A stretch of DNA of 32,000 nt from assembly GCA_963704435.1 (NCBI GenBank), contig OY969902.1, positions 720,001 through 752,000 on the forward strand. Reading direction: 5' to 3'. Source of the stretch: an uncultured archaeon. Its GTDB lineage: Archaea; Micrarchaeota; Micrarchaeia; Micrarchaeales; CABMGC01. Below are positions 12,790-32,000 of the stretch, piece after piece. A model generated the notes under the pieces. The model was not told the DNA's origin. It was given only the letters and a program-made list of their open reading frames with translations, and ran no database searches. Position 1 is the first letter of the stretch. Every line of letters starts with the position of its first letter. Both the position numbers and the translations under genes were made by a program.

Positions 12790-15639
12790 CTAGAAGGCGA
12801 TGTCCAGGCTGGGCTTCAGCGGCGCAGCCCGGTCCGCGCGCGGCGACTTCGATTCGGACTCCTTCTCCACGACGACCCTGCACCCAAGCTGGGTGCCCAT
12901 GTACTCGGCAGCGTCGCTCAGTCCGTTGAACTCGTCCTCCTGCATCACGGTGACCTCCCTGAGACCGTTGACCCTCTTCGCCAGCGACGCGAGATATTTT
13001 GCGGCCTTCTCCTTGTCGAGCTTTCCGTCCTTCCTGACCGCCTCCATGGCCTTCTCCACGCTCTTCTTCTTCGCAACCTCGTTGGTGAGCTCCCTCTTCC
13101 AGTCGTCGGCGACCACAATCCTCGCCTCCCTCGCCCTCTTCCCGGCCTTCTTCTGCATCAGCGCGATTATCTGCTTGGCGTCGCTCACCACCCCGTCCAC
13201 GAGCTCCTCGCCAGCCTCAAGGTCGTCGCTCACCATGGCCCCGTTCGCCTCAGGCCACCTCTCGGCGGACGAGAAGGTGGTGTTTCCCAGCAGGTGCCAA
13301 AGCTCCTCCGAGAAGTGGGGGGCGATGGGCTGCAGCATTAGCGCCACCGAGGACAGGTACTCCTTCACGACTATCGCGTTGGCGCCTCCCCTGGCGAAGT
13401 ACCTCCTGAGTTCAACTACAGATCCGTAGAGCACCGCAACCGCGGCGTCCCTGAGCTCCAGCTTCTCCATGGCCGCCGTCGCGTCTGATATCTTCCTGTT
13501 GAGCTTCGAGTAGAGCCAGTAGTCCATCCTCTTGAGCTCACCGGCCTCGAGCCCGCCCGCCTTCTCCGCGGAGTCGAACAGGTACTGCAGCCTTGCCTTG
13601 ACCCCCTCCAGCGCGTCTGCGTTGAACTCGGAGTCCGTGAAGAGATCAGTCCCGGCTATCTCTATCACCCTCAGGGGATCGCCGCCATACTTCTCTATCC
13701 CGTCCCTCAGGGGCACGATGTTGCCGAGGCTCTTGCTCATCTTCTCCCCCTCGTAGTTGACGAACCCGTTGACCACTATCTGCTTCGGCCAGTACTTCCT
13801 GTCGAATATCGCGACGTGGTTGAAAAGATACATGGTGTAGTGGTTGTATATCAGGTCGGGGGCCGAGTGGCTCGACGCCTGCGCGTACCAGTAGTCGAAG
13901 GACTCCCTGCATTCGTTTATCAAAGTGTAGTCTATCTTCGTGGACGCTGCGACGGCCTCAACGTCGCCCTTGCCCAGGAACACGTAGTCGAAGAACTCGG
14001 GCTTCAGCGCCTCGGTGTCGACGTTAGCTATGAGGTTGGATATGGTGTAGAACGCGGGGTAGATCGTCGAGTCGGACAGCGACTCTATTATGAAGTTCCT
14101 GTCCAGCGGGAACTTGGTGCCCAGGCCCTGCGCCCTGGCCACCGCGCGGAGGTTTATCCACTCGGCCGCGGCCTCGAACGCGTTCCTGCTCTTCTGCGGG
14201 AATATGGCCATCTCGCCCAGCAGCTCCCTGACCAGCTTCTTCCATTCGGCGTCGCCGTAGTTTATGAACCACTGGTTCTCCACCGCCTTGACCACTATCT
14301 CGTAGCCGCACCTGCAGTAGACCGGCGCGTTCGCCAGCACGTAGATCTCTACCGCGTTCCCCTGCTTCAGCAGTTCCCCCTTGACCCTGTCCCTTGCCTC
14401 GGGCTCGCTCATTCCCTCGTAGCCCCTGACCAGCATCTTTCCCCAGTGCGACTCCTCCCTGTACTGGAGCTTCGTCGCGAACTCGAGCATGTCGTCTATA
14501 GCGTTCGCGTCCGTATGCAGGACCTCCAGGTACGCCAGCGCCGGCACGTCCACGTGCACCGGCCTCGCCTCCCCCGCCGATACGTCCCCCAAAGACCTCC
14601 CTATTTCCACATCTATTATCTTCTTCGGCTTTATCTCGGGCATCGCGTAGCCGCTGGCCCTGAGCCGCTCCAGGGCGGCGTAGTCGAACGGGGCATGTGC
14701 GGGCACGCTCATGACTATCCCTGTGCCTATGCCCTCCTTGACGAAGAAGCCCGGAAGTACCGGCACGGACTCGTTGGTGGCGGGGTTAACGCACTTCTTC
14801 TTGAGCATCTCCTTTCCGTCCGTCTCGCTCAATACTGTGACCTTCATCTGGCTCTTCAGCGCATCCGCGCACGCCTTGGAGAGGTAATAGTTCCCGTCGC
14901 GCCCCTCTATGCTGCACAGCGCGTACTTCGCGCCATCGTTGACGAATACGTTGGTGACCCCGAAGACCGTCTCGGGCCGGTAGGTCGCGCAGAGCACTGA
15001 GGCCTCCTCCCCCTCGACCCTGAACCTTATGGCCGTCTGCCTCTCTATGTCAGGCTCCACGTCGTGCTTGGTGTCGTGCATGCCCACTGCGTTGTTCTCG
15101 TTCGGGCACCATCCGACGGGATGGGATCCCTGCGTGAGGAAGCCGAGCCGGTGGAGTATGCCGAACTGCCACTCTATGAACTTGCTGAACCTCTCGTCCG
15201 TGGTGACGAACTTCCTGCGCCAGTCGATGCTGTAGCCAGCGAACCTCATCCCGCTCTCCATCTCCTTGGTGAAGTACTTGGTGATGTAGACGGGGTCGAC
15301 CATCTTCGCTATCTCGTCCTCGGGGATGTGGAAGAGCTTCAGCTCGTCGAACAGCTCCCTGTCGTTGTTCTTTATCCTCTTGGCGAACGCGAGGACCGGA
15401 GTGCCGGTGGCGTGGAAGCCCATCGGGAACAGGACGTTGAATCCCCGCATCCTCTTGTATCTCGCGAGCAGGTCGGCCGTGCCGAACGTCCTTAGGTGGC
15501 CTATGTGCTGCGGCGTGTTGACGTAGGGGAACGCGCCGAAGACCATGAAAGGGGGCTTATCCCCTATCTCCGGGGCGAATATCTTGGCATCGTCCCACGC
15601 CTTCTGCCACTTGGCCTCCATCTCAGCGTAGTCGATCAT
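12790..15639 (-). CDS. leuS: Leucine--tRNA ligase (archaeal type)
   Basis: 949 aa. PYVNTPQHIGHLRTF (HIGH), a large editing insertion, and GEKMSKSLGN (KMSKS). Length and C-terminal extension are typical of archaeal LeuRS. Confidence 0.97.
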   Translation of the reverse strand: MIDYAEMEAKWQKAWDDAKIFAPEIGDKPPFMVFGAFPYVNTPQHIGHLRTFGTADLLARYKRMRGFNVLFPMGFHATGTPVLAFAKRIKNNDRELFDELKLFHIPEDEIAKMVDPVYITKYFTKEMESGMRFAGYSIDWRRKFVTTDERFSKFIEWQFGILHRLGFLTQGSHPVGWCPNENNAVGMHDTKHDVEPDIERQTAIRFRVEGEEASVLCATYRPETVFGVTNVFVNDGAKYALCSIEGRDGNYYLSKACADALKSQMKVTVLSETDGKEMLKKKCVNPATNESVPVLPGFFVKEGIGTGIVMSVPAHAPFDYAALERLRASGYAMPEIKPKKIIDVEIGRSLGDVSAGEARPVHVDVPALAYLEVLHTDANAIDDMLEFATKLQYREESHWGKMLVRGYEGMSEPEARDRVKGELLKQGNAVEIYVLANAPVYCRCGYEIVVKAVENQWFINYGDAEWKKLVRELLGEMAIFPQKSRNAFEAAAEWINLRAVARAQGLGTKFPLDRNFIIESLSDSTIYPAFYTISNLIANVDTEALKPEFFDYVFLGKGDVEAVAASTKIDYTLINECRESFDYWYAQASSHSAPDLIYNHYTMYLFNHVAIFDRKYWPKQIVVNGFVNYEGEKMSKSLGNIVPLRDGIEKYGGDPLRVIEIAGTDLFTDSEFNADALEGVKARLQYLFDSAEKAGGLEAGELKRMDYWLYSKLNRKISDATAAMEKLELRDAAVAVLYGSVVELRRYFARGGANAIVVKEYLSSVALMLQPIAPHFSEELWHLLGNTTFSSAERWPEANGAMVSDDLEAGEELVDGVVSDAKQIIALMQKKAGKRAREARIVVADDWKRELTNEVAKKKSVEKAMEAVRKDGKLDKEKAAKYLASLAKRVNGLREVTVMQEDEFNGLSDAAEYMGTQLGCRVVVEKESESKSPRADRAAPLKPSLDIAF

Positions 15640-26014: not shown

Positions 26015-26101
26015 ATTGCGGGAGGAGTTACTGGAAGGAAGTCCCGCGCTCGCGGAAACGGAAAATCTTTAAAAGGTTAGGTGCCTGTTAATCCTAGCAA
26101 G

Positions 26102-26854
26102 ATGATTGCGATGCCCGATCCGCGCATAATAGGGGTTGTCAGCCAGAAAGGGGGAGTCGGCAAGACCGCGATAGCCGTGAACCTCTCCGTTATCCTGAGG
26201 CTCAAGGGCTACAGGGTGCTGACCGTTGACGGCGACACCAGCAATCCGAACATGGGCATCCAGCTGGGGATGGAGAACGCAAACATAGGCTTCAAGGAGC
26301 TCGCCACAAAGAAAAGCAAGGTGGACGGCGTAGTGACGATACACGGCACCACTGGCCTTCACGTAGTCCTGGGGACCCTCCGCTCAAAGCCGTACCTCCT
26401 TACCAAAGCCGACGTAATCCGGCTGAAGTCCAAGCTCAAGGAATGCGACTATGATTTCGTGATACTAGACACCGCGCCCGGATTCTACGCGACCGAGGCG
26501 ATGGAGCTCCTTGACGAGGCGATACTCGTCGCCACGCCCGACACGCCAGCGGTGACCGGAATCCTGCGGCTCAACAGGATCCTGAAGGGGATGGGGGCAG
26601 AGCGCTACATCGTGCTCAACAGGGTGAAGGGGAAGAAATACGAGCTCCAGCCTGATGAGATAGAGGACGCCAGCGAGGACAAGGTGGTTGCCGCCATACC
26701 TGATGACGACATAGTCAACGAGAGCCTTGCCGAGAGGATACCCGCGTGCATGATGGGCAGGAACTCCGATTTCTCCAAAGCCGTGACTAAGCTCGCGGTC
26801 AAGCTGTCCGCAGGCAAGAAGAGAGCAAGCGCCCCCTTAGCTAGCTCGCCATGA
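26102..26854 (+). CDS. MinD/ParA-family P-loop ATPase
   Basis: IIGVVSQKGGVGKTAIAVNLS (deviant Walker A with signature Lys), LTVDGD, and DFVILDTAPG (Walker B). ATG 26102 is preferred over the track's GTG 26081, because a ctttaaaag TATA-like element (26067-26075) lies about 30 nt upstream of it. Confidence 0.9.
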   Translation: MIAMPDPRIIGVVSQKGGVGKTAIAVNLSVILRLKGYRVLTVDGDTSNPNMGIQLGMENANIGFKELATKKSKVDGVVTIHGTTGLHVVLGTLRSKPYLLTKADVIRLKSKLKECDYDFVILDTAPGFYATEAMELLDEAILVATPDTPAVTGILRLNRILKGMGAERYIVLNRVKGKKYELQPDEIEDASEDKVVAAIPDDDIVNESLAERIPACMMGRNSDFSKAVTKLAVKLSAGKKRASAPLASSP

Positions 26855-26885: not shown

Positions 26886-26930
26886 TTTATATATCTTGGT
26901 CTGGAAATAAACTAGTCTAGGATTAGACCA
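26886..26930 (+). promoter_or_regulatory. Candidate promoter (TATA tttatatat) plus inverted-repeat operator upstream of the PadR-ABC operon
   Basis: TATA-like tttatatat at 26886-26894. Outer inverted repeat TGGTCT (26897-26902) / AGACCA (26925-26930). Inner palindrome GTCTA-N4-TAGAC (26915-26928). All lie between the TATA box and ATG 26940. Confidence 0.4.
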
Positions 26931-26939
26931 TACTATCTG

Positions 26940-27302
26940 ATGCGCATGTTTGACAAGGACGCCCTATTCAAGAAGTTCGACGCCGCGATGATGCACGGGG
27001 CTCTGAAGCTCATCGTGCTCGCTCACCTCCGCGACAGCGGCACGTACCCATATGCTATGCTGAAGCACTTCAAGGGCAGCGGCCACTCATTCCTCGCGGG
27101 CATGGGCAAGTCGGAGATGTACAACATAATCAATTCGCTGGAGAAGGAGGGCTTCGTGTCTTACCGCATAGTCAAGAAGGGAGCGCGGTCGCAGAAGCAC
27201 TATGCGCTCACGCCGAAGGGAAGGAAGGTGATCGGGACATCGAAGCAGATAATGACCCGGGCTATGGGCGACTTCAGGAAGCTTGTGAAGAGTGAGTTCT
27301 GA
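26940..27302 (+). CDS. PadR-family transcriptional regulator
   Basis: 120 aa. LKLIVLAHLRDSGTYPYAMLKHF...MYNIINSLEKEGFVSYRIVKKGARSQKHYALTPKGRKV fits the PadR winged-helix pattern (LEKxGxV...RKxYxLTxxG). Its stop overlaps the next ATG (TGATG). Confidence 0.8.
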   Translation: MRMFDKDALFKKFDAAMMHGALKLIVLAHLRDSGTYPYAMLKHFKGSGHSFLAGMGKSEMYNIINSLEKEGFVSYRIVKKGARSQKHYALTPKGRKVIGTSKQIMTRAMGDFRKLVKSEF

Positions 27303-28294
27303 TGGACGACTATGCGATAGAAATGGACAACGCGGTCCAGAAGTTCGGCGACTTCATCGCAGTCGACGGGATCACCCTGAAGATAAAGAAGGGCGAGATA
27401 TTCGGGCTCTTGGGGCCGAACGGCGCCGGAAAGAGCACCATAATAAACATGCTTCTCGGGCTGCTGAAGCCCACTTCGGGAAGCGTCTTCGTGAACGGTG
27501 TCGACATGCAGAAGGACCCGAACCGCGCGAAGAAGACGCTGGGCGTGGTCACGCAGGAGACCGTCGTCGAGCCCGAGCTAACCGCAGAGCAGAACCTGAT
27601 GATCTTCGGAGACCTCTACCACGTGCCCAGAGAGAAGCTTCCCAAGAAGATAGACTTCCTGCTGGAGCTCGCCGACCTGAAAAATTTCCGCAAGTCGTAC
27701 GCAGGCACCTTCTCGGGAGGAATGAAGCGCAGGCTCGAGACGGTGAAGGCCCTCGTGCACGACCCCGACATAATCTTCATGGACGAGCCGACGACCGGGC
27801 TTGACATCCAAAACAGGACGAGGATGTGGCAGCTCCTTAGGCAGATAAACAGGGAGAGGAACGTCACGGTGCTCATGACCACGCAATACCTGGAGGAGGC
27901 GGACCAGATGTGCAACAGGATCGCGATAATAGACCACGGGAAGCTCGTGGCAGTCGGAACGCCCGCGGAACTGAGGCAGAAGATCGGGCTCTATGACATC
28001 ATAGAGATCGCCGCAGACAAGGAGGACCTGCAGAAGGTCGCGCAGATATTCAAGAAGCTGGGCCTGGAACCGCAGGCCCTCAGCAACAAGGTGATCTGTT
28101 CTGTAAAGAGCGACGCGGTGAAGACGATAGAGAGGCTGATAAAGACCATAACCGCCGCAGGCATAAAGATACAGAGCGTAAGTCTGCACGAGCCCACGAT
28201 AGACGACGTCTTCCTGAAGCTGACGGGCTCCTCTGTGAGGGACGCGACAGGCGAGTACGTGGGAAAGGGCATATCGTTCGGAGGTAGAAGATAG
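27302..28294 (+). CDS. ABC transporter ATP-binding protein (ABC-2/DrrA-like subfamily)
   Basis: 330 aa. GEIFGLLGPNGAGKST (Walker A), FSGGMKRRLE (signature), IIFMDEPTTGLD (Walker B), TTQYLEEAD (H-loop). Confidence 0.95.
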   Translation: MDDYAIEMDNAVQKFGDFIAVDGITLKIKKGEIFGLLGPNGAGKSTIINMLLGLLKPTSGSVFVNGVDMQKDPNRAKKTLGVVTQETVVEPELTAEQNLMIFGDLYHVPREKLPKKIDFLLELADLKNFRKSYAGTFSGGMKRRLETVKALVHDPDIIFMDEPTTGLDIQNRTRMWQLLRQINRERNVTVLMTTQYLEEADQMCNRIAIIDHGKLVAVGTPAELRQKIGLYDIIEIAADKEDLQKVAQIFKKLGLEPQALSNKVICSVKSDAVKTIERLIKTITAAGIKIQSVSLHEPTIDDVFLKLTGSSVRDATGEYVGKGISFGGRR

Positions 28295-28295
28295 C

Positions 28296-29402
28296 ATGAG
28301 CATAATGGAAGACGCGACGACCCTGTTCACAAGGGAGATGCTGATATTCAAGAAGAATATCACCGCGGGCTTAGCCAGGACCATCATCTTTCCTGTCATA
28401 TTCATACTTCTCCTCGGAAGCATAGGCAACACCCCGCAGCACGTCCCGATAGCGGTGGTAAACTTCGACAACGGCGCGGCATCGCTGGCGTTCATAAACA
28501 TGCTTACCTCGGGCGGGGCGCTCAGCGTCAAGGGAATGACTGACCAGCAGGATGCGATGAGCCTCCTGGCACAGGGAAGCGTCGCGGCCGTGGTCGTCAT
28601 ACCCAGCGGCTTCTCGAGCTCCAGTTCATCCGATGTCTTCGTCTACGTGGATGCCTCGTCGTCCGCCTCGGCCGAGGTAGCTACCAGCGTGATAAGCTCG
28701 GCTGCGTCAAGCATGAACTCGAAGCTTGTCGCAAGGAACGCGCAGGGCGAGGGGATATCCGTAATCACCAACCCCGCCTACGGGGCGACCAGCAACAACA
28801 TCAGCTTCACCGTAGCCGGAATACTGGTGCTCGTAGCGACTACGGGAGCCATATTCAGCGGCGGGTTCACGGTGCTGCAGGACAGGCAGCTCGGCAACCT
28901 CAAGGCGTTCCTCGTGACCCCCATAAACAAGGTCTCGATACTCCTCAGCAAGGTGTTCTACGGCACGTTCCAGTCCGCGTTCAGCGCATACGTTGCGCTC
29001 GCCATCGGGCTGCTGTACGGCGCGAGCATCGCATCGGGCGTTGTCGGAATGCTGGAGATACTCTGGTTCATATTCCTCGTAGGCTTCGGGTTCAGCTGCA
29101 TAGCGGTGTCCCTGGCGATAAGGATGAAGCAGACGCAGACCTACGCCCTTGTCGCGCAGGTGGTGTCGCTCCCGCTTTCGTTCCTCGCAGGCGCACTGGT
29201 CCCCGTGTCCTCGCTGCCCGCCTTCCTGGCCCCCCTGGCGGCCTTCAACCCGCTGACCTACGCAGTCAACGCAGTAAGGGACATAATGCTCAAGGGCTCG
29301 CTTCCGATCGGGGCGTTCCTCGTCGATTCGACGATACTGATAGCCTTCTCAATAGTCATGCTGGCGATAAGCGTCTTGCTATTTAAGAATATAAACGAAT
29401 AA
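28296..29402 (+). CDS. ABC-2 type transporter permease
   Basis: 368 aa. N-terminal TM, a large extracytoplasmic loop, then five C-terminal TM helices, the typical ABC-2 topology. It starts 1 nt after the ATPase stop. Confidence 0.88.
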   Translation: MSIMEDATTLFTREMLIFKKNITAGLARTIIFPVIFILLLGSIGNTPQHVPIAVVNFDNGAASLAFINMLTSGGALSVKGMTDQQDAMSLLAQGSVAAVVVIPSGFSSSSSSDVFVYVDASSSASAEVATSVISSAASSMNSKLVARNAQGEGISVITNPAYGATSNNISFTVAGILVLVATTGAIFSGGFTVLQDRQLGNLKAFLVTPINKVSILLSKVFYGTFQSAFSAYVALAIGLLYGASIASGVVGMLEILWFIFLVGFGFSCIAVSLAIRMKQTQTYALVAQVVSLPLSFLAGALVPVSSLPAFLAPLAAFNPLTYAVNAVRDIMLKGSLPIGAFLVDSTILIAFSIVMLAISVLLFKNINE

Positions 29403-29410
29403 GTGATCTC

Positions 29411-30985
29411 ATGAAAAATACGACAAAAGGAATCTGGATCCTGCTGCTCTTACCGCTCATGATGGGGTTGGCGCAGGCGCAGTCCACCCAATCAGGAGCG
29501 CTGTCTCTGGCCAACGTGGCGGTGATGCCCAATCCAGTGATAGCCGGGAGCAACGCGACGGTGGTGTTCCAGCTGTACAACTCCTACGGATCGTCGCTGA
29601 CGAACGTCAACCTGCAGCTCACGGGAAGCTACCCCCTGCTGAACTTCTCGCCCTCCAGCTCATACCTGGTGAGCGTAGTGGGGAGCGGCCTCTACGCTGG
29701 CGCGATAAGCTACACGATGCATGTCCCGAAGACGACCCCTACAGGCACCTATACGCTCAGCCTGGTCGGCACGTACCAGACCGTGTCATCAGTGTACGGC
29801 CAGGTCGTGGGCAGCTCGGTAATGCCCCTAAGCGTGTATGTGAACGGCATACCCAACATAACCGCGGTCGCGGGCTCCACGCCAGTGACGCCGGGCAGCC
29901 CGATGGTGCTGTACGCGCGCATCGTGAACTCGGGCTACGACACCGCGAAGAACTTGGTGATCAGGGCTCTCAACACCAGCGGATTCACGCCATACGGAGT
30001 GGGCACGTTCTCTATAAGTTCGCTTCCGGTAGGCGCGGCGCTGAACGTGTCGATAAACTACCAGACGTCCCAGTCCGTGAAGAACGGGACCTACTCGCTC
30101 CCCATCTCGGTCTCGTACCAGTCGGGCATAGGGACCCAGTACTCGAAGACGATAAACCTGACTGAGAGCATCGCGATAGTCAGCCCGCAGGTCAGGCTCA
30201 GCTTCGCCAATCCTATGCCGCAGGCGCTCTTCGCAGGATACAACCAGACCGTCCAGCTGCAGATACAGAACGTGGGCAACGGCGTGGCCAGGAATGTCAG
30301 CGTGTCGCTGGTAGCGGGACAGGGCACAAACCTGCTCGGCTCCGTGGACAGCTTCTTCATAAGCACGCTGCAGCCGGGCCAGACCATAAGCGAGCCGGTA
30401 CTGCTGTCAGCCAGCGGCGTGGGCAGCGCTACGGTCAACGCGACCGTGGCCTACTACTCAGCGGACTACAGCAAGAACTTCAACGGCGCGCAGCTGCTTA
30501 GCCTTGCGCTCGCGCCGGCGGCGCAGTTCACTGTCACGGGCGAGAGGTCAAGCCTCGCGCCGGGATCGACCGACGTGCCCGTGACGTTCGTCGTGAAGAA
30601 CACCGGCACCATAGCCGCGCAGGGCGTGCAGTTCAACCTGCAGAGCACATACCCGATAACTCCAGTGTCGAGCACCTACTACCTGAGCGACCTGCCCATC
30701 GGCTCCAGCGCCAACGTCACCTTCCTGGTAAGCGCGGATTCGCAGGGAGTGCCAAGTTCATACCCTGTGACGATCTTCGAGCAGTGGAAGCAGCCTAACG
30801 GCGCCACCAACCAGCAGTTCTCCGGGTCCGTCAACTACTTCGTGACCGTCGGCACAGGCGGAAGCAGCCTGGGCGACATCGCGGGAGCGGCTGTGATCAT
30901 CGTGATAGCAGTGGGCGCGTACCTGTTCATGAAGAAAAGGAAGGCGAAGGCAAAGCCAGCGGCCGAGAAGGCGAGGGGCAAGTGA
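29411..30985 (+). CDS. Surface protein with four CARDB/COG1361-like Ig-fold repeats and a C-terminal TM anchor
   Basis: Signal-like MKNTTKGIWILLLLPLMMGLAQAQ. Four roughly 100-110-aa repeats of pattern PG/AGS...(V/L)...(I/V)xNxG...AxxV...L (for example LQIQNVGNGVARNVSVSL and FVVKNTGTIAAQGVQFNL). C-terminal IAGAAVIIVIAVGAYLF plus a KKRKAKAK tail. Confidence 0.8.
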   Translation: MKNTTKGIWILLLLPLMMGLAQAQSTQSGALSLANVAVMPNPVIAGSNATVVFQLYNSYGSSLTNVNLQLTGSYPLLNFSPSSSYLVSVVGSGLYAGAISYTMHVPKTTPTGTYTLSLVGTYQTVSSVYGQVVGSSVMPLSVYVNGIPNITAVAGSTPVTPGSPMVLYARIVNSGYDTAKNLVIRALNTSGFTPYGVGTFSISSLPVGAALNVSINYQTSQSVKNGTYSLPISVSYQSGIGTQYSKTINLTESIAIVSPQVRLSFANPMPQALFAGYNQTVQLQIQNVGNGVARNVSVSLVAGQGTNLLGSVDSFFISTLQPGQTISEPVLLSASGVGSATVNATVAYYSADYSKNFNGAQLLSLALAPAAQFTVTGERSSLAPGSTDVPVTFVVKNTGTIAAQGVQFNLQSTYPITPVSSTYYLSDLPIGSSANVTFLVSADSQGVPSSYPVTIFEQWKQPNGATNQQFSGSVNYFVTVGTGGSSLGDIAGAAVIIVIAVGAYLFMKKRKAKAKPAAEKARGK

Positions 30986-30986
30986 A

Positions 30987-31637
30987 ATGCAATCCAAAGC
31001 TGAGAGCGCAGGAAGCGGCCCTGCCCTTATTGCGGAGAAGACCTTAGAAGCCTGCCTTGCGCTCGCGCAGCGGGCCAAGCAGGGCTGCCTGATCGTCTGC
31101 GAGACCAAGCCGATATCTAAGCAGTACTACAAGGACTCCAATAGGGATTTCTGCCACCCCGACCTGAGCCCGATCTCCATCTTCGACCCGGATGACAGGC
31201 AGGGCCTTGAGAAGCTCGCTGCGGTGGACGGCGCCCTGATACTCGACTCATCTGGTGCGATGCTACATTATGGGGCTACCCTACTCCATTCCACGAGCAT
31301 GCGCGGACACGGCAAGCGCCACGCCTTCGCGCGTGGCACGAGCATGGCGGTGAAGGGCGTAGTCTGCATTTTGCATTCGGAAGAGGACGGACACACGAGG
31401 TCGTTCAGGGACGGGTTTCTTGTCGTTGACATCGCGCCTGACGGGAAGCTGAAGAACATGACGCGCCATCGCATCGCCGCGCTCCTCTGCAACCCCCTCA
31501 CCGCCACATTGGCCGTGTCGGGCGTAGTGACCAGCATACTGTCGCTGAATCCATTGCCGGCCATCATTACGATAAGCGGCAGCACGATCTTGATCAGGCA
31601 GGGGTTCCTAGGGTTGAAGAAAACCATCGAGGGTTAG
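30987..31637 (+). CDS. Divergent DisA_N/DAC (diadenylate cyclase)-like domain protein with a hydrophobic C-terminal tail
   Basis: 216 aa. Aligns by eye to CdaA-type DAC: QGCLIVCET vs IGALIVIER; AVDGALILDSSGAMLHYGATLL vs LHDGAVIIKNNEIAAAACYL (DGA motif kept); HGKRHAFARGTS vs LGTRHRAAVGIS (GTRHR becomes GKRHA); VVCILHSEEDGHTRSF vs LTIIVSEETGGVSV. The C-terminus LTATLAVSGVVTSILSLNPLPAIITISGSTILI is hydrophobic. Confidence 0.6.
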   Translation: MQSKAESAGSGPALIAEKTLEACLALAQRAKQGCLIVCETKPISKQYYKDSNRDFCHPDLSPISIFDPDDRQGLEKLAAVDGALILDSSGAMLHYGATLLHSTSMRGHGKRHAFARGTSMAVKGVVCILHSEEDGHTRSFRDGFLVVDIAPDGKLKNMTRHRIAALLCNPLTATLAVSGVVTSILSLNPLPAIITISGSTILIRQGFLGLKKTIEG

Positions 31638-31638
31638 C

Positions 31639-32000
31639 ATGGACAAGGCCGCAGCGAGTATCGGAATAATCGGCGGGTCTCGGTTCTATTCATTGCTCGA
31701 GAATTCAGAGCGCGCTAACGTAGACACGCAGTACGGGAAGCCCAGCGACGAGATCACAATCGGGGAGTTGGCCGGAAAGAGGGTCGCCTTCCTGCCGCGG
31801 CACGGCGCAAGGCACACGCTTGCCCCGCACAAGGTCCCGTACCGCGCGAACATAGATGCGCTGAGCGGCCTGGGCGTAGGGAGGCTCATAGCGTCGAGCA
31901 CTGTCGGGTCCCTGGTCGCGGATTACGAGCCAGGGGACTTCGTCTTCTTCGACCAGTTCGTAAACATGTCGCACGGGCGCGAAGACACCTTCTTCGATTC
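31639..32000 (+). CDS. mtnP: S-methyl-5'-thioadenosine phosphorylase (purine nucleoside phosphorylase family), 3' end beyond the window
   Basis: Absent from the track (no stop inside the window). My translation is MDKAAASIGIIGGSRFYSLLENSERANVDTQYGKPSDEITIGELAGKRVAFLPRHGARHTLAPHKVPYRANIDAL...STVGSLVADYEPGDFVFFDQFVN, which closely parallels the MTAP N-terminal region (IGIIGGSG, GKPSD, FLxRHG..H...P..V.YRANI.AL, GSL, PGD...DQF). Confidence 0.9.
   Translation, partial: MDKAAASIGIIGGSRFYSLLENSERANVDTQYGKPSDEITIGELAGKRVAFLPRHGARHTLAPHKVPYRANIDALSGLGVGRLIASSTVGSLVADYEPGDFVFFDQFVNMSHGREDTFFD

Follow-up and report, generated by a model that had tools for sequence, protein, structure and literature searches.

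A PadR-headed ABC-2 transporter gene cluster of Micrarchaeales and a DAC-like gene in its variable downstream slot

ABC exporters under the control of PadR-family repressors are already known, for example LmrR/LmrCD of Lactococcus lactis. Among the ABC-2 exporters, DrrAB of Streptomyces (daunorubicin/doxorubicin) and related type-V ABC exporters resemble the genes described here, and in NosDFY and GldAFG the ABC-2 transporter has an extracytoplasmic partner protein of its own. In Firmicutes, the CdaA-CdaR-GlmM operon encodes a membrane diadenylate cyclase together with an anchored extracytoplasmic regulator. We analyzed a stretch of 32,000 nucleotides (referred to as the window; OY969902.1, positions 720,001 to 752,000; G000:C1:720001-752000 in our numbering) from a single-contig Micrarchaeota genome (853 kb, 92% complete). 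Towards the end of the window, six genes follow each other in one orientation: a PadR-family repressor (padR), an ABC ATPase, an ABC-2 permease, a secreted stalk protein with CARDB domains, a protein related to diadenylate cyclase (DAC) domains, and 5'-methylthioadenosine phosphorylase (MTAP). An open reading frame (ORF) listing placed all of them where the initial annotation had put them (Table 1). We propose, with a probability of roughly 0.7, that they form one operon, consisting of a conserved, self-repressed core of PadR, a DrrA-type ATPase, the ABC-2 permease and the CARDB protein, to which a DAC-like gene without a promoter was added as a lineage-specific insertion.

The ATPase passes the cut-off of the DrrA subfamily (TIGR01188 drrA, 325.8 versus 312.45) and has the DrrA C-terminal domain, and the ABC-2 permease gene is found directly downstream, as in DrrAB. 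The permease, however, stays below the DrrB threshold (TIGR01247, 98.2 versus a cut-off of 223) and, as a protein of the ABC2_membrane_3 type, carries a large extracytoplasmic loop. Moreover, a CARDB stalk gene is always located 3' of the permease, and the cassette is near-universal in reduced genomes instead of being tied to an antibiotic cluster. With LmrR/LmrCD the locus shares a short, single-domain PadR protein that heads ABC transporter genes and a palindromic predicted operator at the promoter of padR itself. LmrCD, however, belongs to another type of ABC exporter, and the promoter is archaeal here (TATA box), with the predicted operator placed over the presumed transcription start. As in NosDFY and GldAFG, the genes for the ABC-2 ATPase and permease share one putative operon with that of a putative outer-face partner. 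In contrast to these systems, this protein is composed of three or four CARDB β-sandwich domains with a C-terminal anchor; it is neither a β-helix like NosD nor of the GldG type.

The likeness to CdaA-CdaR concerns the second part of the locus, where a membrane-held DAC-domain protein is encoded beside an anchored protein with four repeated, β-rich outer domains. CdaA and the DAC-like protein have the DAC fold as well as the DGA and SEE motifs in common. The anchor of the DAC-like protein, however, would be a C-terminal hairpin and not three N-terminal transmembrane (TM) helices, the RHR motif is changed to RHA, the outer protein has CARDB instead of YbbR domains, and the pairing of the two genes is restricted to a minority of lineages. 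The characterized archaeal diadenylate cyclases are DacZ/CdaZ of Haloferax volcanii and Methanocaldococcus jannaschii (PMC6741144, PMC10249747). These also contain an archaeal DAC domain, but the DAC-like protein has no pyruvate-kinase-like N-terminal domain and reaches only 21.9 with the NCBIfam DacZ model (cut-off 430). Since dacZ has been reported as absent from DPANN (PMC12699388), we regard the DAC-like protein as a member of a different DAC class.

The conserved four-gene core

The permease was found in 142 of 151 sampled genomes of the order Micrarchaeales and in 82 of the 83 high-quality genomes. Near-full-length orthologues with the large outer loop, which DrrB-length relatives do not have, were restricted to the two main families of the order (f1 and f3). 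There they are present in 58 of 59 genomes; 57 align over essentially the whole length and one is cut at a contig end. The other orders of the class mostly contain a shorter ABC-2 protein of ~250 amino acids (aa). When the CARDB protein and the permease were used as queries in word-based protein searches, almost all source-named matches came from Micrarchaeota. One permease orthologue (G073:C27:4723-5835) is embedded in a 656-aa open frame, which may be a fusion with a neighboring gene.

The gene order PadR-ATPase-permease-CARDB was kept in 30 of the 30 best loci, and the same order with tight junctions was observed in all 35 loci examined (PadR was missed by tblastn in two of them and is off-contig in one). 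At 34 of 34 loci the ATPase and permease genes are separated by -4 to +6 nt. For the same number of measured loci the junction between permease and CARDB gene ranges from -4 to +32 nt and that between PadR and ATPase gene is mostly 25 nt or less. The CARDB gene lies 3' of the permease in every locus examined. Tight junctions recur in 34 of 34 related loci, so chance does not explain how closely the first four genes are packed. Within the window, the initial annotation had described a TGATG overlap of PadR and ATPase genes (27300-27304) followed by gaps of 1, 8, 1 and 1 nt, which is exact, and its calls of PadR, ABC, CARDB and DAC domains all scored above the curated cut-offs in our profile searches.

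For PadR, the match to PF03551 (40.4 bits, cut-off 27) covers residues 26-98. The ATPase contains ABC_tran (PF00005, 117 bits) and also matched PF13732; the motifs GPNGAGKST and FSGGMKRR are present. At the H-loop position (~residue 185) we observed Gln in place of His (TTQYLEEA), as in 31 of 32 orthologues with the motif detected. This Gln may be a trait of the DrrA subfamily. The permease was assigned by ABC2_membrane_3 (PF12698, 115 bits versus 31.6).

A scan for bacterial sigma-70 promoters and intrinsic terminators is unsuited to an archaeon, and TATA boxes and T-runs were searched for instead. The sole TATA-like box on the + strand between positions 15000 and 32000 (TTTATATA) is located 54 nt 5' of padR, and related loci have a TATA box at the equivalent relative position. 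No T-runs of five or more were detected between 26000 and 32000. The Shine-Dalgarno (SD)-like motifs of the internal genes sit within the respective preceding gene: GGAGGT for the permease (10 nt 5' of its start), GTGATC for the CARDB gene and GAGG for both the DAC-like gene and MTAP. Upstream of padR no SD-like motif was found. A short-leader first gene without SD ahead of internal genes that each have one is typical of archaea. The single transcript claimed in the initial annotation is plausible in silico: a single TATA box heads the genes, neither a further TATA-like box nor a T-run was detected among them, and the internal genes have SD-like motifs.

Between the TATA box and padR, 26 of 32 loci contain a palindrome with the consensus TAGTYTAAATYTARACTA (at most 4 mismatches), compared to 0 of 640 background windows. 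The copy in the window shares its half-sites with loci L051 and L071 and is the predicted PadR operator. The conserved, tight gene order together with the palindrome therefore argues for a PadR-autoregulated core operon that is near-universal in the order. A literature search yielded no published description of a near-universal PadR + ABC-2 + CARDB cassette in Micrarchaeales. The cassette is among the very few transport systems that are kept in nearly every genome of this host-dependent order (~0.8 Mb), and its near-universal presence in such reduced genomes argues for a central role in the cell envelope. Host-dependent archaea of this order take lipids from their host (PMC8975820).

The stalk protein matches CARDB (PF07705, 51 versus 22.7) and also PF10633. 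Its AlphaFold2 model was built from 35 homologues and has a pLDDT of 80. It comprises a signal helix, four β-sandwich domains (residues ~31-145, 150-254, 261-367 and 373-480) and a TM helix (residues 488-510). Profile matches and model thus agree with the initial label of a membrane-anchored protein with four CARDB-like domains. In a Foldseek search the model gave generic matches only, to multi-Ig and macroglobulin-domain proteins. Homologues fall into two length classes of ~405 aa (P0035-P0120) and ~525 aa (P0002-P0034), which probably have three and four β-sandwich domains, respectively.

NCBI names the relatives of the stalk protein 'COG1361 S-layer family protein'. We considered it as the main S-layer protein of Micrarchaeota and rejected this assignment: it has no PF05123 match and only 524 residues, and the S-layer protein identified in Micrarchaeota is a different protein of 101 kDa with a PF05123 S_layer_N domain (10.1101/2021.04.28.441871). 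The space under the S-layer measures 20-25 nm (10.1101/2021.04.28.441871).

The DAC-like gene and its neighborhood

In the window the DAC-like gene occupies the slot 3' of the CARDB gene, the content of which varies between related loci. The commonest gene at this place is MTAP: in 9 of 29 related permease loci it starts -4 to +78 nt from the end of the CARDB gene. In the close relative L073, which has the same upstream genes (a 745-aa protein and MinD), MTAP follows the CARDB gene after 9 nt and there is no DAC-like gene. The closest relative, L076 (85% identity of the CARDB protein), has the series permease, CARDB, a 208-aa DAC protein and MTAP with 1-nt gaps as in the window. In L074 and L075 (64% identity of the CARDB protein) an ORF of 153 and 144 aa, respectively, is located between CARDB gene and MTAP. 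The slot thus appears to accept different genes. From the missing DAC gene in L073, the unrelated ORF in L074 and the DAC gene in L076 we conclude that the DAC-like gene is a narrow-lineage insertion in a variable slot. The slot ORFs of L074 (7661-8122) and L075 (7688-8122) have no Pfam match; a decayed DAC-like gene was considered for the former and discarded, as the comparison with the DAC-like protein gave E = 31.

Within the order, the DAC-like gene was found in 15 of 151 genomes, and ~90% of the module-bearing genomes have no DAC-like gene at all. The module is adjacent to the DAC-like gene in four of these 15 genomes, 8-11 kb away in two and on other contigs in nine. The initial annotation had proposed a survey of ABC-2 permease, CARDB and DAC genes within 5 kb of each other. 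At this distance, ABC-2 permease and CARDB genes were the most recurrent neighbors of DAC-like genes (7 of 21 loci, always upstream and on the same strand), but the conserved unit consists of four genes and not of five. Module-adjacent copies occur in both deep clades of the DAC-like tree. Two tandem pairs of DAC-like genes (L031:7231-8665 and G071:C12:13068-14436) were observed; therefore, one old adjacency followed by duplication could explain the adjacency in both clades. Outside this genome, the 1-nt packing of the DAC-like gene is shared by L076, whereas CARDB and DAC-like genes are further apart in the other adjacent lineages.

In the five other adjacent loci, CARDB and DAC genes are separated by 116, 118, 130, 466 and 1454 nt. 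We read four of these five intergenic regions for signals and found a TATA box in all four and T-runs in three. In the three short gaps (116, 118 and 130 nt), T-runs come just after the CARDB gene; the TATA box reads TTTATAAA and is preceded by a conserved TTCC[AG]CTA box ~25 nt upstream. In L036, with its gap of 466 nt, a TATA box and the TTCC[AG]CTA box are present, but no T-run. Most of the evidence thus suggests that the DAC-like gene, although physically linked to the module here, is no built-in part of it but mostly an optional neighbor.

The TTCC[AG]CTA box was located upstream of the DAC-like genes at L021:9905-9965, L022:9895-9970, L025:3880-3945 and L036:9810-9850. It was also observed upstream of the DAC-like genes of L023, L032, L033 and L037, two of which (L023 and L033) are not near the module. 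The box is probably a regulator binding site of the DAC-like gene family. The window lacks this box; the DAC-like gene has no promoter there. A conserved, convergent ORF of 87-88 aa lies just 3' of the DAC-like gene in L021 (10609-10872), L022 (10634-10900) and L025 (4584-4850) as well as in L023 and L024, and stays with the DAC-like gene where the ABC module is not upstream. The DAC-like proteins of L023 and L024 are almost identical to that of L025; L023 and L024 keep the downstream neighbors, but not the module. Other DAC-like copies adjoin genes for SecY, a GT4 glycosyltransferase, a Wzx-type flippase, an ABC1 kinase or SCP2.

The DAC-like protein was detected by PF02457 with 30.1 bits (cut-off 27). 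The core of its AlphaFold2 model (residues 20-150) has a pLDDT above 90 and matches CdaA, DacA, DacM and DisA with a Foldseek probability of 1.0 and target-normalised TM-scores of 0.56-0.69. The DAC-like assignment, which the initial annotation had made without profile searches, survives both comparisons. The family profile aligns with CdaA across DGA, G-x-R-H and SEE. In 18 of 18 aligned Micrarchaeota DAC-like proteins DGA, HGKRHAF and SEED are invariant. Of the catalytic motifs, DGA and SEE are kept, whereas RHA is found instead of RHR; judged by the alignment, the change of the canonical GTRHR to GKRHA is a trait of the Micrarchaeota family. The C-terminal 45 residues contain two short hydrophobic segments that flank an invariant LNPxPA motif. 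They would form a hairpin membrane anchor, in a region where the model is not confident. None of the accessory domains of CdaA, DacZ or DisA (three N-terminal TM helices, pyruvate-kinase-like N-domain and HhH C-domain) was found in the DAC-like protein.

A profile search of 1.84 billion representatives gave 75 clusters of a wider family at E ≤ 1e-10. All 20 sequences retrieved from it consist of a DAC domain and a C-terminal hydrophobic tail (19 of them with ~200-230 aa and one with 321 aa), and most have GTRH(S/A)A, likewise without the second Arg. In automatic annotation the class with C-terminal hairpin and RHA is named "diadenylate cyclase"; no study of such a hairpin-anchored, RHA-type class was found in the literature searched. 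The family shows that DPANN contain DAC-fold proteins, with their own putative membrane anchor and an altered catalytic motif.

The copy in the window forms the longest branch of the family tree (1.6 versus a median of 0.37). Six changes at near-invariant positions are found in this copy only; five of them are conservative. Decay of the gene, as could be suspected from the long branch, was rejected because the ratio of nonsynonymous to synonymous substitution rates (dN/dS) between the window and L076 copies is ~0.18 (a rough value, as dS is near saturation) and all family invariants are kept. By these measures the gene is real, functional and under purifying selection. A second DAC-like copy with 51% identity is encoded at 193 kb of the same genome, at G000:C1:193397-193990. 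Searches of the 853-kb, 92% complete genome for the receptor domains RCK_C/TrkA_C (PF02080) and DarA/CdAMP_rec (PF06153) gave no matches. The genome encodes four DHHA1 proteins, which are non-specific.

Proposed mechanism and alternative explanations

Based on the conserved gene order and the predicted promoter elements we propose the following mechanism. PadR would stay bound to the palindrome that covers the transcription start and leave this operator once a ligand is present. The ABC-2 pump would then export or flip a hydrophobic or envelope-bound substrate, and the stalk protein could act as the partner of the pump in the space between membrane and S-layer. The DAC-like gene, a member of a patchy Micrarchaeota family, was inserted between CARDB gene and MTAP without promoter or terminator. 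Because the insertion brought neither of these, the DAC-like protein is probably co-produced with the pump from the PadR-controlled transcript, in the window as well as in L076.

Some observations weigh against this proposal. The six-gene stretch would be one operon, but its co-transcription is inferred from the DNA sequence only. In addition, the nearest relatives of ATPase and permease differ from those of PadR and CARDB protein. Compared to the window, L074 shows identities of 87% for the ATPase and 84% for the permease, but 51% for PadR and 64% for the CARDB protein. In L073 PadR (74%) and CARDB protein (79%) are closer than the permease (50%), and L076 combines a CARDB protein of 85% identity with a permease of ~50%. 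Recombination seems to have replaced the ATPase and permease genes as a pair, separately from PadR and CARDB gene, and pump and stalk may be less tightly matched than expected for a fixed complex. Finally, a neutral insertion alone does not predict that the module is the top neighbor of DAC-like genes, at 7 of 21 loci spread over both deep clades.

This last observation would fit the idea of the initial annotation that the five genes from padR to the DAC-like gene act as one system. The DAC-like protein in the membrane would then sense or control exporter and stalk through a cyclic dinucleotide, by analogy to CdaA-CdaR. There, too, a membrane cyclase is joined to an anchored, multi-domain, β-rich outer protein. 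The constant order and strand at the seven loci and the 1-nt packing, which is kept in two lineages separated by a dS of at least 0.5, fit this idea as well. We nevertheless consider it unlikely. About nine tenths of the genomes with the module do without a DAC-like gene, and elsewhere the DAC gene is 116-1454 nt away, with a TATA box in 4 of 4 and T-runs in 3 of 4 intergenic regions read. The DAC genes of L023 and L024, near-identical to that of L025, keep their downstream neighbors and not the module, other copies adjoin genes such as those for SecY or SCP2, and the adjacency in both clades could go back to a single ancestral event with duplication, as seen in the tandem pairs. The RCK_C and DarA receptors were also not found in the genome. 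An even bolder variant, which we regard as very unlikely, is that the CARDB stalk (alone or together with the ABC-2 pump) and the hairpin-anchored DAC-like protein are a CdaR/CdaA-like sensor pair, in which the state of the envelope or of the host-contact zone sets the synthesis of a cyclic (di)nucleotide. If true, this would be the first such signaling route in DPANN, and it would use a cyclase class with an altered active-site motif. The genome analyzed here, with cassette and DAC-like gene on one predicted promoter, is a natural starting point to probe a functional link.

Both of these ideas presuppose a cyclic nucleotide product. It is possible, though we lean against it, that the DAC-like protein is not a diadenylate cyclase but binds nucleotides as a pseudo-enzyme or forms some other product, so that its place in the operon says nothing about cyclic di-AMP. 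The replacement of GTRHR by HGKRHAF in all aligned Micrarchaeota members and the loss of the second Arg in the wider ~200-aa family point in this direction, as do the Pfam score barely above the cut-off, the low score with the DacZ model and the missing receptor domains. On the other hand, DGA, Arg-His and SEE(D) are invariant and aligned with the active-site motifs of CdaA, the fold matches that of active cyclases, the gene is under purifying selection, and DHH/DHHA1 proteins able to degrade the product are present, though non-specific. As for the core, it could be an ordinary, dispensable DrrAB-type drug or toxin pump under PadR control, with the CARDB protein as a merely co-transcribed surface protein. 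The ATPase does score above the DrrA subfamily cut-off, and PadR repressors classically control detoxification and multidrug pumps such as LmrCD, with LmrR as the repressor. A dispensable resistance pump would, however, not be expected in 82 of 83 high-quality genomes of ~0.8 Mb. At the 34 measured loci the CARDB gene lies -4 to +32 nt 3' of the permease gene; the permease, moreover, stays below the DrrB cut-off and carries an outer loop that is not found in relatives of DrrB length. This explanation is therefore improbable in our view, and we prefer the PadR-autoregulated envelope transporter with an inserted DAC-like gene.

Features of the locus and neighboring genes

The elements of the putative operon are listed in Table 1. 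MTAP continues past the end of the window. Its fragment (120 residues in the window) matches NF006334 with an E-value of 1.9e-46 and 158 bits, compared to a cut-off of 382 for the full-length protein.

Table 1. Predicted features of the operon region (window coordinates).
Feature	Position	Strand	Evidence or remark
TATA box TTTATATA	26886..26893	+	presumed sole operon promoter
Palindromic putative PadR operator TAGTCTAggatTAGACCA	26913..26930	.	spans expected transcription start
PadR-family winged-helix repressor, 120 aa, short single-domain type	26940..27302	+	PF03551
DrrA-subfamily ABC ATPase with DrrA C-terminal domain	27302..28294	+	TIGR01188, PF00005, PF13732
ABC-2 permease (ABC2_membrane_3), large TM1-TM2 loop	28296..29402	+	PF12698
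Secreted, C-terminally anchored stalk protein, four CARDB/NEW3 β-sandwich domains, 524 aa	29411..30985	+	PF07705, PF10633, AlphaFold2
DAC-fold protein, 216 aa, putative C-terminal hydrophobic hairpin	30987..31637	+	PF02457, Foldseek
5'-methylthioadenosine phosphorylase (MTAP), continues past window end	31639..32000	+	NF006334

A MinD/ParA-type ATPase is encoded directly 5' of padR (positions 26081-26854). It occupies the same position in L073 (82% identity) and not in L074. A second, short ABC-2 permease was observed on the minus strand at G000:C1:719015-719608, ~400-1000 bases before the start of the window. The similarity of its open frame (~253 aa) to the window permease is limited to the C-terminal half of the latter; this type is also present in other orders of the class.

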